From: a virus
Strand: one strand, 5' to 3'
Virus record (IMG/VR): IMGVR_UViG_3300027749_000062
Location: 40,242-104,241 of that record
DNA length: 64,000 nucleotides
In this document: piece after piece, positions 38,801-45,909 of the stretch
How the letters are laid out: each line of letters starts with the position of its first letter
How positions within the stretch are numbered: the first letter of the stretch is position 1
Notes under the pieces: generated by a model
Database searches by the model: none
The model's input: the letters and a program-made list of their open reading frames with translations, nothing else
What the model was told of the DNA's origin: nothing
Made by a program: the position numbers and the translations under genes

Positions 38801-40804
38801 ATGGACTACAGTAAAGCAAAAAAAATAAGAAGCCAGAGCCTCAAAGATTTAATCATAGACAGAACCTTAAATGGGGAGGGCTTTGGTAAATCTATTTCCA
38901 GTTCCATAAAAGATAAAACTAAAGCTAAACTAACAGGCCTCAAAGAGAAATTTGATCCAATGAATATCTCCCGTGCAGTTGGAGGAAGATTAGGTGCATA
39001 TGCATATGGTAAACTTGCAGGTAGAAGTGATAAAGATATGGCTTACTTTGCAGGTGTAAAAAACAAAAAATCATCAGCTGACGCATCAGCTCTTACACCA
39101 GTTAAGAATGATCCTCTAGTTTCAAAAGTATCCGACGGTGAAAATAGACCAATCAGAAAAGGTGAAGGTCTTTCCACTATTATGGCTCGTATTTTCAATT
39201 TGTTAAAAAGACAAATTTTAGAAGAAAAGAAAGAGAGAGAAATTGCTGCGGATTTTGAAGAAGAACAGGAAGATGAGAGAGAATTAAGACATAAAGAATT
39301 ACTTGATGCTCTAAAAAATTTAGGTGGTGGAACTGCAACTGCTGAAAAAAAAGGTAAAGGTTTTCTTGAAAGGATGATTGAAATAGTCAAAAAAATATTG
39401 GCCGCAGTATTTTTAAAACTTAAACCATTACTGACTGTTTTGAAATCAATAATAAAAGCAATTGCTTTAAATAAAGATTTATCAACCTTACGAAGTATTG
39501 CATCATTAGCTATGGCGTTTCCGGGTGTTGCCTTGGTCGCAGGTGGGGCTGCTGCTGCAGTTGTAATATCCAGAGATGTTGAACAACGCCAAGAAGCTAT
39601 GAGAGCTGATCCTTATAATCCTAAATTTAAAGATGAACCTTATGCAATGATTCAAAGGGGTGAAGCTTCCAACAACAGTGAAGCTGGAGCATTAAACGCA
39701 CAAAAAATAGGAAAACAAAAACCTAGAGATATAGTCGAATCAATAATGACCAATCCTGATTTTACTGATGTGGTAAAAAAGCAAGAGTTATCTGTTCAAA
39801 ATTTACAACAAGTAACGGACTGGTTAGCAAAAACTCAAGGTAATCAGAGAGCTAAATTTCAAGGTGAAGTTACAAATAAAGCTGGAAAATTAGTTACTCT
39901 TTCAGGTGGTACAGATGAAAATTTAGTTGTTCCGGCCACTAATCCAAAAAGTGCAAAATATGTTGCTCCAGCGCAGGCGGCACCACAAGTTATTGATGTA
40001 AAAGGTGCTGGTGAAAATATTATACCTGCAGATAATGTTGGACTAGACGGCCGACCATTAACTCCAGCTCCAGCACCAGCAGCTGCTCCAGCACCAGCAG
40101 CTGCTCCAGCACCAGCAGCTGCTCCAGCGCCAGCAGTTGCTCCAGCGCCAGCAGTTGCTCCAGCGCCAGCAGTTGCTCCAGCGCCAGCAGCACCAGCAGT
40201 GCAAGCGGCCGATGTAAAATCAGCAGTAAAAGTAGAAGAATCAGCACCAAAACCGGAAGCTGCAACTGCTGTACCTGCTAGTAAACCTTACAGAGAAATT
40301 GCAAAAAATATAAGAGTAGATTCTACAATATCCGATGAAACAATTTCTAACATGAAAGAATCACCTGGAAATTTCAATTTTCTTGATTCGGATGAAATGT
40401 GGACAAGAAATAAAAACGGAAATCTCGGTATTATAAAAATTCCAAAACAAGATATAATAAAAAGTAGCAATTTTTCTAAAGAAGAAATGGAAAGGCAAAC
40501 AAAAGAAACAAAAGAAAGAATAATAGATGGTGCAAAAAATATGAAGTTGGATTCTGATAAAAAATCTTCACTAGAAACAAGTGACAACATGTTTGCTCAA
40601 ATGTTTCAAAGAGCTCAAAAAGTTTATGAAGATTTAATGTTAGCTAGTGATAGTACAAAATTTAAACCTACTATAATAGATGCAAGTAAGAGTGTTGCAA
40701 CTTCTGGTGGCGGTAATTCTGGCACCATTTTTTCAGCTCCTGTTCGTACAGATGATGATACTCTAAAACTTATACTGAAAAAAAATACTCACTCATTTGC
40801 ATAA
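38801..40804 (+). CDS. Second tape-measure-like virion protein
   Basis: KEKFDP.NI motif; shares RKG(D/E)G...RH.E...AL segment with the previous gene. Confidence 0.6.
   Translation: MDYSKAKKIRSQSLKDLIIDRTLNGEGFGKSISSSIKDKTKAKLTGLKEKFDPMNISRAVGGRLGAYAYGKLAGRSDKDMAYFAGVKNKKSSADASALTPVKNDPLVSKVSDGENRPIRKGEGLSTIMARIFNLLKRQILEEKKEREIAADFEEEQEDERELRHKELLDALKNLGGGTATAEKKGKGFLERMIEIVKKILAAVFLKLKPLLTVLKSIIKAIALNKDLSTLRSIASLAMAFPGVALVAGGAAAAVVISRDVEQRQEAMRADPYNPKFKDEPYAMIQRGEASNNSEAGALNAQKIGKQKPRDIVESIMTNPDFTDVVKKQELSVQNLQQVTDWLAKTQGNQRAKFQGEVTNKAGKLVTLSGGTDENLVVPATNPKSAKYVAPAQAAPQVIDVKGAGENIIPADNVGLDGRPLTPAPAPAAAPAPAAAPAPAAAPAPAVAPAPAVAPAPAVAPAPAAPAVQAADVKSAVKVEESAPKPEAATAVPASKPYREIAKNIRVDSTISDETISNMKESPGNFNFLDSDEMWTRNKNGNLGIIKIPKQDIIKSSNFSKEEMERQTKETKERIIDGAKNMKLDSDKKSSLETSDNMFAQMFQRAQKVYEDLMLASDSTKFKPTIIDASKSVATSGGGNSGTIFSAPVRTDDDTLKLILKKNTHSFA
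40064..40199 (+). repeat. 18-bp tandem repeat, about 6 units (PA(A/V)APA)
   Basis: CCAGCAG(C/T)TGCTCCAGC(A/G) units. Confidence 0.92.
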
Positions 40805-44494: not shown

Positions 44495-44938
44495 TTAGAA
44501 ACTAAATTTAACGCCAGCAGTAATACGGCTACCGTTTTCTGCAACAACCCGGTCTTGACCAGCTTGGTAACTGTAATCAAGTCCTGCTGTAACTGACTTG
44601 GTAATTGGCATACGAGCACCAATACCAGCAGAAGCGGCATAACCATCATAAGCTGAACCTGATTGGCTATCGATAAAAAGAAGACCAAATTTAGCATCAA
44701 TTGATACAGGTCCCATTTTTGATACCTCTACACTATTAACCAAACTGTAAGAGTCAGCGGATGTAGAACGATTGAATCCTGCGGTTAGGTTATAACCATG
44801 TACGGTTTCACCAACTGATACACCCCAAACATTTTGTGTTGAGCTAAGATTGGTGCCATCATTGATACCAACTTCTAAAGCCTGTGCGCTTGCAAATACA
44901 CCCATAAGGGATGCGATAAGTACGAGTTTTTTAATCAA
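44495..44938 (-). CDS. Small outer-membrane beta-barrel protein (OmpA-TM/Ail/Lom-like)
   Basis: Signal peptide ending AQA, alternating beta strands, C-terminal G.K.xF; TTG start after AGGAG. Confidence 0.8.
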   Translation of the reverse strand: MIKKLVLIASLMGVFASAQALEVGINDGTNLSSTQNVWGVSVGETVHGYNLTAGFNRSTSADSYSLVNSVEVSKMGPVSIDAKFGLLFIDSQSGSAYDGYAASAGIGARMPITKSVTAGLDYSYQAGQDRVVAENGSRITAGVKFSF

Positions 44939-44962
44939 AATTTTCTCCTATTGTTGAACAAA

Positions 44963-45272
44963 TTGCCGACTGATTGGATAATAAGGACAGTCGGCGAAAC
45001 CTCAGCTTAGCTTAAGCAGCTAGGCGATATGCGGAGTCGTTTGCATTTACGTTTTTTGCTTGATTAACGGTCATCGCCTACCGTGCTGTCCACTCTGTTA
45101 CTTGTTGCCCTGTCGAAACTATGCACCCCCATCAAAAACGCACCAAAGGACTTGAACCTTATTTCTAGAATAGTACCATACAACCAGAGCGACTGGCAGA
45201 TGCGTTTTTGGTGGAGGTGGGGGGATTCGCACCCCCGTCCAGAACACTTTTCTCTTTGCTTCATACAGCAAT
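44963..45272 (-). ncRNA. ssrA: Circularly permuted (two-piece) tmRNA, tag ANDSAYRLAA
   Basis: Acceptor piece ends GGGGG-TGCGAAT-CCCCC-CACCTCC-A-CCA at 45209; coding piece starts GGGGGTG...TTCGAC at 45130; G3.U70 pair; tag frame 45044-45012; outer ends approximate. Confidence 0.95.
45138..45205 (-). ncRNA. tRNA-like element inside the tmRNA intervening segment
   Basis: 7-bp stem ACGCATC/GGTGCGT, D-like arm CCAG/CTGG, T arm AAGG-TTCAAGT-CCTT; anticodon arm poorly paired; no CCA. Confidence 0.5.
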
Positions 45273-45277
45273 AAAAT

Positions 45278-45368
45278 ACACACTTAGGGAGATTCTCACT
45301 CCCGTACCCACAAAGTGGGAACTTAGTCTAATTGCACAGCTGAGCCATGTCCCAGTTCATAAGTGTGT
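45278..45368 (-). ncRNA. tRNA-like structured RNA upstream of tmRNA
   Basis: 9-bp stem ACACACTTA/TAAGTGTGT, arms CTGGG/CTCAG and CCCAC/GTGGG, T-like arm GGGAG-TGAGAAT-CTCCC. Confidence 0.55.
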
Positions 45369-45377
45369 TAATTATAT

Positions 45378-45406
45378 ATTGTATCACAGGATTAGAGACT
45401 TGTCAA
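45378..45406 (-). promoter_or_regulatory. Sigma70 promoter for the RNA locus
   Basis: TTGACA-N17-TACAAT; predicted +1 near 45371. Confidence 0.85.
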
Positions 45407-45418
45407 GCCTCTCATAAT

Positions 45419-45691
45419 TTAAGTGTTTTCGAATATATTTACAAAAACTGTTCCGTCTTCCAGTGCTTCTATTTCATGCCATTCGTTTGCTGCAAGATTA
45501 ATTGGTTTTGAAAACTTATTGATAATTTTTTCACGACCTTCTTTGCGTAGGATGCAACTACCTGCATTGCATATTGTAGCGTGAGCGAATGTGTGTTCAT
45601 GTTTTGGTAATCCTTCATTCATGTTGGCGTGGTAAACATTGAAAGATGCGCCGGCATAATCAAATTGATGAATAGGATTAACAACAATCAT
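45419..45691 (-). CDS. Cupin-fold protein
   Basis: LP.H.H...H.T....G and WHEIEALEDGT.F.N motifs. Confidence 0.8.
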   Translation of the reverse strand: MIVVNPIHQFDYAGASFNVYHANMNEGLPKHEHTFAHATICNAGSCILRKEGREKIINKFSKPINLAANEWHEIEALEDGTVFVNIFENT

Positions 45692-45909
45692 AAATCTTCT
45701 AGACCTTGTATTACTGGACCTGTAGTAACAGGAGTTCTTTTAATTCTATTTTCAGAAGTATTAAAATACCACCAATCGGCCATAACATCATCTTCACATT
45801 CCAACCAATATGTTGGTTCTGCTGGTGTCCAAGATTTTGTATCACATACATCTGCAATTCGATAACCATTTTCTACAAGTTCGTTTGGACATACTAATGC
45901 ATATTTCAT
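45688..45909 (-). CDS. Small acidic fibre-associated protein
   Basis: K.AL..PNE...G.RIA.V....W..C.DDV.AD.W; follows Gly-rich gene. Confidence 0.5.
   Translation of the reverse strand: MKYALVCPNELVENGYRIADVCDTKSWTPAEPTYWLECEDDVMADWWYFNTSENRIKRTPVTTGPVIQGLEDL

Follow-up and report, generated by a model that had tools for sequence, protein, structure and literature searches.

A 91-nt element lies between a sigma-70-type promoter and a permuted two-piece transfer-messenger RNA (tmRNA) gene on the minus strand of the viral DNA studied here (Table 1), a 64,000-nt stretch of the IMG/VR virus record IMGVR_UViG_3300027749_000062 (positions 40,242 to 104,241 of that record; the window). We find that this element belongs to a real, conserved and apparently undescribed family of transfer RNA (tRNA)-shaped RNAs in freshwater T4-like phages. 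With moderate confidence, we read it as the gene for a small non-decoding RNA of this tRNA-shaped family, and we consider this RNA an accessory that is not required for maturation of the tmRNA. An earlier reading of the window (the original prediction) had recognized an undescribed tRNA-like RNA of 91 nt that begins about 3 nt past the predicted +1 (~45372-45370, minus). Both parts of this claim stood, in that the element starts 2-4 nt downstream from the predicted +1, and that its conserved tRNA-like shape is borne out by covariation in 14 sequences, with no Rfam match at E ≤ 10.

A conserved five-helix fold around a four-way junction

Pattern scans of IMG/VR and JGI metagenomes placed the element in ~25 uncultured freshwater phage contigs, which carry 14 distinct sequences. 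These fall into clade A (the window, L185-L193 and L204), clade B (L110 and L205), clade C (L194-L198 and L202) and a more divergent member, L316, which was the sole new member from further DNA-pattern scans of IMG/VR, JGI metagenomes and GTDB contigs; no bacterial copy came from these scans. The collections were searched by DNA pattern, and two covariance models (R1 and R2) were run on ~2.5 Mb of collected loci, in which they found no further members; the window's copy scored 118.9 bits by these models. Element-pattern scans of 185,579 GTDB species genomes found no copy, and a distant-mode DNA search of cultured phages (INPHARED) matched the tmRNA part only. The covariance model and the search of phage contigs that the original prediction had proposed found conserved pairing, and neither a match to a known family nor an absence of conserved pairing was seen.

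RNAalifold recovered the terminal stem and the hairpins, and a fifth helix, AACU/AGUU, which the original prediction had not listed, was spotted in the alignment. With this helix added, the earlier picture of a structure missing its anticodon arm becomes that of a four-way cloverleaf junction, in which P1 (9-10 bp) is followed by UG, by P2 (4 bp), which leads through an internal loop to P2b, by P3 (5 bp), by UAC and by P4 (5 bp with a 7-nt loop), and then by the return strand of P1. Standard pairs occupy 98.8% of the 420 pair cells (14 sequences, 30 pairs), in an alignment that was fitted to the model and so favours structure. Eight pairs changed on both sides, with at least one such pair in each of the five helices. 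Moreover, none of 500 shuffles reached the observed values on three pairing measures or on the covariation score, and in controls in which the partners were slid by 1-3 columns, pairing fell to 25-46%.

The changes are distributed over the whole structure. In P1, three pairs changed on both sides (C-G to U-A) and 97% of cells are paired; a tenth pair is formed in other members, and is A.A in the window. In P2, all cells are paired. Clade A and L316 have A-U as the second pair (A45356-U45321; alignment columns 17 and 52), which has become U-A in clades B and C (4 sequences). Two pairs of P2b changed on both sides and two by wobble, and its loop is variable in both sequence and length. In P3, all cells are paired, with an A-U pair that became U-A in L316 and G.U in clade C; its loop has no conserved position and differs in length, with 3 nt for clade A and L316 but 5-7 nt for clades B and C. 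The stem of P4 is invariant save for a swap of G-C to C-G in L316. Positions 1 and 5 of the P4 loop vary together (U..A or G..G, as read from the alignment), from which one could infer a T-loop-type intraloop pair.

Invariant positions are concentrated in the junction (17 of 20 nucleotides) relative to the hairpin loops (3 of 16 positions). Furthermore, the element and the adjoining acceptor piece of the tmRNA are 85-87% identical between clades, compared to 65-67% for a nearby PhoH-like gene. The fold is under purifying selection. The window's copy taken alone folds modestly better than its shuffles (-29.9 kcal/mol, z = -2.05).

Two other readings of these nucleotides were tried and rejected. 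A rival helix, UGGGA:UCCCA, is paired in 94% of cells, but compensatory changes are lacking and the helix is disrupted in clade C and L316, and we rejected it as a conserved fold. A coding reading, based on an AUG in P1 that opens a 10-codon frame in the window, was ruled out by frame-shifting indels in L110 and L316.

We considered that the element might be a decaying tRNA pseudogene, the now functionless relic of a tRNA that once stood before the tmRNA. In some relatives (L219, L243 and L293), this tmRNA type does have true tRNAs right in front of it, the consensus of the T loop is lost, and the loop at the anticodon position, 5-7 nt long in clades B and C, has contracted to 3 nt in clade A, all of which one would expect of such a relic. 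A relic would not, however, show compensatory changes in every helix, among them the extra hairpin in the D-loop position, which itself covaries; nor would it keep an invariant junction, be better conserved than the adjacent protein genes, or persist in three clades plus a tRNA array. Decay is the least probable of the explanations that we weighed.

The element is tRNA-like in two dimensions, but is not a member of the tRNA family

The likeness to tRNA was also picked up by the models built on the element. A true tRNA-Glu was matched by model R1 from one end to the other and in the register of a cloverleaf (23.8 bits, E = 0.019 in 918 kb). With filters off, three tRNA-rich loci (35.6 kb) gave 33 weak model matches, of which about 10 coincided exactly with annotated tRNAs. 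Helices P1 to P4, each supported by covariation, form the four-way junction of a cloverleaf with linkers of UG, 0 nt, UAC and 0 nt. Like canonical tRNA (RF00005), the element has the same arm order around a four-way junction, a 2-nt linker (UG), a 4-bp D-like stem and a stacked T-like arm of 5 bp with a 7-nt loop. In contrast to canonical tRNA, its "D loop" is ~30 nt long and bears a hairpin of its own, and there is neither a discriminator nor a CCA. The stem that corresponds to the acceptor is 9-10 bp rather than 7 bp and is followed by AUUUUAU with no encoded CCA, and there is no 7-nt anticodon loop. Thus, the element is tRNA-like in two dimensions, but it is not a tRNA family member.

This arrangement agrees only in part with the arms that had been assigned from the window. 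The 9-bp terminal stem (ACACACUUA/UAAGUGUGU) and the T-like arm that abuts its 3' strand were described correctly. The proposed 5-bp D-like arm exists as a hairpin (6 bp, two of them G.U), but it sits in the D-loop position, and a separate, covarying 4-bp stem is the D-like one; likewise, the hairpin described as a 5-bp variable-like arm is present, but occupies the position of the anticodon arm. The statement that an anticodon arm and CCA are lacking was therefore right with respect to the CCA and a 7-nt anticodon loop, and wrong in that the P3 arm fills the anticodon-arm position.

Searches against known families were negative. No Rfam family, including tRNA, tRNA-Sec and YrlA, was found on 45278-45368 at its gathering score or at E ≤ 10 (cmscan of 44700-45700), and in 23 related loci no Rfam family other than tRNA or tmRNA was found. 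ARAGORN at default settings called the tmRNA only, with no tRNA on the element. A 90-nt "tRNA-His" that a relaxed ARAGORN run placed on the element was dismissed as noise, as that setting gave 64 calls in 104 kb.

Individual families with tRNA-like parts differ from the element in specific ways. For tRNA-Sec, the 9/5 geometry and a 6-bp hairpin do exist, but the AACU/AGUU helix places this hairpin in the D-loop position, and there is no anticodon loop. For the tRNA-like domain of tmRNA, P1 has A3-U rather than G3.U70 and no CCA follows; the Rfam tmRNA models span only the sequence from 45270 downstream, or unpaired flank, and R1 scored 13-14 bits on the T arm of the tmRNA. YrlA, a tRNA-mimicking module bound by Ro/Rsr, resembles the element as a non-coding RNA with a tRNA-like domain that occurs in bacteria and some phages. 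The element has no Rfam match to YrlA or other bacterial Y RNA and no long Ro-binding stem, and a TROVE/Ro gene was found neither in the genome of the window nor in any of three complete relatives. The missing match and the missing gene both exclude YrlA. Like mascRNA and MEN-beta and other cases of "tRNA punctuation", the element has a reduced anticodon arm and no encoded CCA and is embedded beside another functional RNA, and its proposed excision by tRNA-processing enzymes would, by analogy, follow the same logic; unlike it, mascRNA and MEN-beta are eukaryotic and unrelated in sequence, and the only mascRNA match in the window is to the intervening segment of the tmRNA.

If the likeness to tRNA were coincidental, the element might instead be a small catalytic or ligand-sensing RNA, either a new self-cleaving ribozyme by which the precursor is trimmed or a riboswitch-like aptamer that governs read-through into the tmRNA. 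RNAs of these kinds typically show a compact multi-helix junction whose core is nearly invariant and whose loops vary, the U tract after the terminal stem could act as a weak terminator, and the alternative UGGGA:UCCCA pairing is possible in clades A and B. We consider this quite improbable. In 44700-45700, no known ribozyme or riboswitch family (Rfam 15) matched at E ≤ 10; the alternative pairing lacks conservation, and L192 has no U tract. Moreover, the element's model picks out true tRNAs in register, and the L316 copy occupies a tRNA slot with ordinary inter-tRNA spacing.

tmRNA genes of the same type commonly lack the element

We examined the position of the element relative to the tmRNA across relatives. 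In 13 of the 14 versions, the element stands 5' of a permuted tmRNA, joined by a short U-rich linker or separated from it by an inserted gene or a second module, and three complete relatives (160-203 kb, with 25-28 tRNAs elsewhere) carry it once, just 5' of the single tmRNA. In clade A, an identical -35 box, a 17-nt spacer and the -10 box are kept directly upstream of every copy. In every version but one of the 14, the element is followed by a similar U-rich linker of 7-8 nt; this holds for L316, where the linker precedes a tRNA, and the exception is L192, with only 2-3 nt. The 3' end of the window's copy lies, as stated in the original prediction, a few nucleotides from the acceptor piece of the tmRNA: 7 nt (AUUUUAU) separate it from the RF04321 match, which begins at 45270.

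The tmRNA is found without the element far more widely. The ~180 or more occurrences of this phage tmRNA type (102 contigs in one search and at least 120 in another) provided 145 distinct upstream contexts among the matches listed, and most of these 145 have no leader, the tmRNA being separated by 8-9 nt from the end of a sigma-70-like -10 box. One relative, L236, is a clean empty site, since the end of the upstream gene and the tmRNA are common to it and clade C and exactly the element is absent. In the opposite sense, the L316 member (93 bits) lies inside an array of 21 tRNAs, in the same orientation, and 7-8 U-rich nucleotides before the next tRNA; the fragment is 15 kb (~9% of a genome) and has no tmRNA on it. 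Since tmRNAs occur without a leader, since L236 lacks precisely this element and since L316 has the element in the absence of a tmRNA on its fragment, the element is not needed for tmRNA maturation. These same observations overturn the claim of the original prediction that the element is part of a dedicated tRNA-mimic/tmRNA operon, and they mean that processing punctuation for the tmRNA, as proposed there, cannot be the essential role of the element. The original reading, of an operon with RNAs that serve as punctuation or decoys, is thus upheld only in part.

The main idea of the original prediction, that the element is a cis-acting leader of the tmRNA, is one that we consider doubtful. Such a leader, with no function of its own, would be a folded module that protects the 5' end of the precursor and attracts tRNA-processing enzymes, by which the 5' end of the acceptor piece would be set. 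This idea would explain the location of 13 of the 14 versions and the start of the element 2-4 nt past the predicted +1, by which the transcript opens with a closed stem. Furthermore, the window's intervening segment likewise holds a tRNA-like fold, and in clade C, where no sigma-70 promoter was found beside the element, a boundary against the upstream RNA could help. In contrast, the promoter lies just 8-9 nt ahead of the start of most related tmRNA genes, which need no leader, the empty site of L236 is exact, and the L316 element precedes a tRNA, not a tmRNA. In addition, an unrelated module (L185) or an HNH-like gene (L189) separates the element from the tmRNA, and punctuation or 5' protection would require neither 17 of 20 invariant junction nucleotides nor a conserved internal loop. 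The accessory status, the placement in a tRNA slot and the evidence of selection together make a mere tmRNA leader a poorer fit than a small RNA that has a role of its own.

We noted a variety of other insertions and arrangements at this site. A 179-amino acid open reading frame (ORF) is inserted between the element and the tmRNA of L189 (L189:3955-4494, minus), just past the first tmRNA bases (UUGCUGUAU); by eye it looks like an HNH-type homing endonuclease. An initial impression that the tmRNA had been lost in L187 and L189 was ruled out, as the tmRNA lies beyond this inserted HNH-like ORF. A second module of ~95 nt (L185:3531-3632 and L293:2212-2305), which has no Rfam match, consists of a terminal stem (CACUAUA/UAUAGUG), several hairpins and then a U tract; it is located between the element and the tmRNA in L185 and between the tRNA array and the tmRNA in L293. 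Further leaders of ~100-125 nt, unrelated to one another and closed by terminal stems, stand directly upstream of the tmRNA in L208, L225, L283 and L133. A conserved ORF of ~45 codons (MINSDIILL...YDWNNFEEDSK...) is found between the promoter and the tmRNA, ~120 nt upstream, in L131, L139, L144, L148, L108 and others. In L236, L220, L221, L246, L290 and others, (A)TAAATAA is found 6-8 nt before the tmRNA in place of a sigma-70 promoter; this motif resembles a T4-type late promoter, and the tmRNA may thus be late in some phages and early in others. In L316, a folded non-tRNA segment of ~60 nt with a possible promoter (L316:7804-7928) lies between a tRNA and the element and has no relatives among the collected loci. 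The 5' flank of phage tmRNA genes appears to be a hot spot, in which structured RNA modules and small ORFs accumulate and a homing-endonuclease-like gene has inserted.

At the level of DNA, the element might be a mobile or recombination cassette made of a promoter and a structured segment, of the kind of the miniature inverted-repeat transposable elements (MITEs) or of the promoter-early-stem-loop (PeSL) cassettes of T4-type phages, in which the stems are inverted repeats. Consistent with a cassette, the element is a discrete presence/absence block of ~95 bp with terminal inverted repeats of 9-10 bp, promoter and element move jointly into different flanks in clade A, and the same site gathers the small ORF, the second module and the HNH-like gene. 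Nevertheless, a genome holds many dispersed PeSL copies, located at the borders of gene modules, and we found the window's genome and the three complete relatives to have just one copy of the element apiece. Moreover, the changes of U.G to C-G and of A-U to G.U keep pairing at the RNA level only and on this strand only, covariation extends to all five helices around an invariant junction, and the element is better conserved than the neighbouring genes. A cassette with no RNA function is improbable on this evidence.

A proposed pathway and a possible role for the RNA

The element lies between a consensus promoter and the tmRNA, and thus co-transcription is the natural reading. We suggest that the sigma-70 promoter, which matches the consensus at 11 of 12 positions and whose spacer carries an extended -10 TG at -15/-14, would drive a precursor of ~400 nt that comprises the element, the acceptor piece, the intervening segment and the coding piece. 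Nucleases of host tRNA maturation would then free the element, with RNase E or RNase Z cutting in or at the U-rich linker, 3' exonucleases trimming back to the stem, and RNase P acting at the 5' side where a leader exists. The products would be a stable RNA of ~91-95 nt and a tmRNA acceptor piece with a normal 5' end, as in the leaderless relatives. We found no gene for a CCA-adding enzyme or for SmpB in the phages, and host enzymes would therefore have to act. As a guess, the free RNA might mimic tRNA toward a tRNA-binding factor of the host or the phage.

Several points weigh against a tRNA-shaped RNA with its own role. The family is small and shallow, and several of its compensatory changes may have arisen on the same few branches. 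Conserved nucleotides of the tRNA elbow and core (U8-A14, G18G19, T54-psi55-C56 and A58) are absent: there is no GG/UUC consensus, position 14 (after the D-like stem) is G or C instead of A, and the T-like loop differs by clade (UGAGAAU, UGCAAAU or GGYRGAU). The acceptor-like and T stems stack to 14-15 bp compared to 12 bp in tRNA, and recognition by RNase P or RNase Z is thus uncertain. An own role also leans on a single locus, L316, with a fragment of only ~9% of a genome. Finally, we infer transcription, cleavage and stability of the element from its sequence and setting, and to our knowledge it has no partner protein.

Previously described phage tmRNAs share the setting of the element but not the element itself. 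Two-piece tmRNAs behind early promoters are documented in aquatic T4-like phages (Melnitz and pelagimyophages) (PMC9004378), and a tmRNA database paper describes one intact tRNA-Ala inside an intervening segment, noted as a unique case (PMC11915505). The permuted tmRNAs of these two reports resemble that of the window in genomic setting, in the kind of tmRNA and in the early-type promoter. In contrast, neither report describes a structured or tRNA-like leader (PMC9004378; PMC11915505), while the element is a separate upstream RNA. Our search of the literature for a structured leader of a phage tmRNA found nothing.

The nearest analogue of the element is the species 1 RNA of T4 (rnaC). In the T4 annotation it is a small stable RNA found where the tRNA cluster ends, and its fold comprises a terminal stem, a T arm and two further arms. 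Like the element, rnaC and rnaD (species 1 and 2) are small RNAs with no part in decoding that are encoded in a tRNA-type transcription unit of a T4-type phage, and in rnaC, as in the element, the terminal stem closes a multi-branch loop and the T arm abuts its 3' strand. Unlike the element, which is 91 nt with a non-canonical loop and is linked to a permuted tmRNA in most genomes, rnaC is 139 nt with a canonical GUUCGAAUC T loop. There is no detectable homology between the element and rnaC or rnaD (R2 on rnaC, 7.6 bits, E = 2.2). T4 has long been known to make RNAs of unknown purpose from its tRNA cluster, beside true tRNAs, and tRNA mimicry has long been suspected, although never shown, for the species 1 RNA; we know of no function for rnaC.

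Phages with large tRNA sets and a tmRNA of their own invest heavily in controlling host translation. A second, unrelated, conserved family of non-decoding tRNA-shaped RNAs suggests that mimics are a recurrent phage tool rather than an oddity of T4, as does the finding of the element both before tmRNAs and inside a tRNA array. We propose tentatively that the element represents a new class of phage-made tRNA mimics, cut from tRNA or tmRNA precursors and non-decoding, which occupy or mislead a tRNA-recognizing factor during infection; as a full account, we think this unlikely. If it were true, candidates for the target would be a host defence nuclease directed at tRNAs, an enzyme of tRNA modification or processing and a component of ribosome rescue, and the class would give a handle on the role of the T4 species 1 and 2 RNAs, a 50-year-old question. 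The family should be easy to test, being compact (91 nt), with a fold backed by covariation and with natural presence/absence variants.

Features and surroundings of the element in the window

The window is part of a 104-kb record estimated to be ~62% complete. Its permuted two-piece tmRNA, on the minus strand, was identified by both ARAGORN and Rfam (RF04321, 45270-45012, 137.2 bits; RF01850, 99 bits). The coordinates of the element, its parts and the adjoining features are given in Table 1.

Table 1. Positions of the element, its helices and the adjoining promoter and tmRNA in the window
Feature	Position	Strand	Remarks
Sigma-70-type promoter	45378..45406	minus	TTGACA (45406-45401), 17-nt spacer, TACAAT (45383-45378)
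tRNA-shaped RNA element	45278..45368	minus	91 nt; five helices round a four-way junction; covariance models R1/R2 and covariation
P1, 5' strand (acceptor-like stem), ACACACUUA	45360..45368	minus	pairs with UAAGUGUGU, 9 bp
Invariant UG	45359-45358	minus	ahead of P2; place of tRNA nucleotides 8 and 9
P2, 5' strand (D-stem-like), AACU	45354..45357	minus	pairs with AGUU, 4 bp
Conserved internal loop flanking P2b, GGGA and CAAUUAGACUA	45353-45350 and 45334-45324	minus	
P2b hairpin, CAUGGC-UCA-GCUGUG	45335..45349	minus	6 bp including 2 G.U; inserted in D-loop position
P2, 3' strand, AGUU	45320..45323	minus	
P3 hairpin, CCCAC-UUU-GUGGG	45307..45319	minus	5 bp, 3-nt loop; anticodon-arm position
Invariant UAC	45306-45304	minus	ahead of P4
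P4 T-like arm, GGGAG-UGAGAAU-CUCCC	45287..45303	minus	5 bp, 7-nt loop; abuts P1 3' strand with no linker
P1, 3' strand, UAAGUGUGU	45278..45286	minus	
U-rich linker, AUUUUAU, element to tmRNA	45271..45277	minus	7 nt; candidate cleavage or trimming site
tmRNA acceptor piece (3' half of tRNA-like domain)	45209..45270	minus	CCA end at 45209; RF04321, RF01850, ARAGORN
tmRNA intervening segment	45131..45208	minus	holds a second tRNA-like fold
tmRNA coding piece	44962..45130	minus	tag ANDSAYRLAA; closing hairpin ~44997-44967; ARAGORN, Rfam

The tRNA-like fold of the intervening segment has a T arm with GGUUCAAGUCC, and is not conserved among relatives that carry the element, such as L110. The mascRNA-menRNA match in this segment (45191-45139) is weak, at 20.9 bits compared to a gathering score of 42.5 (E = 0.19). 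We also compared 44850-45500 to metatranscriptome contigs from four lake RNA runs; parts of both tmRNA pieces were covered, many of them by contigs from relatives, and 45290-45420 was covered by none, in a comparison made with contigs only.

Upstream of the promoter lie two small genes (90 and 73 amino acids; 45419-45909, minus), which also occur in at least 80 viral contigs with no tmRNA nearby. Neither a tmRNA nor the element was present at 80 loci homologous to the upstream 90-amino acid gene, and these loci give no synteny information. The two genes seem, from this distribution, to be a movable gene pair.

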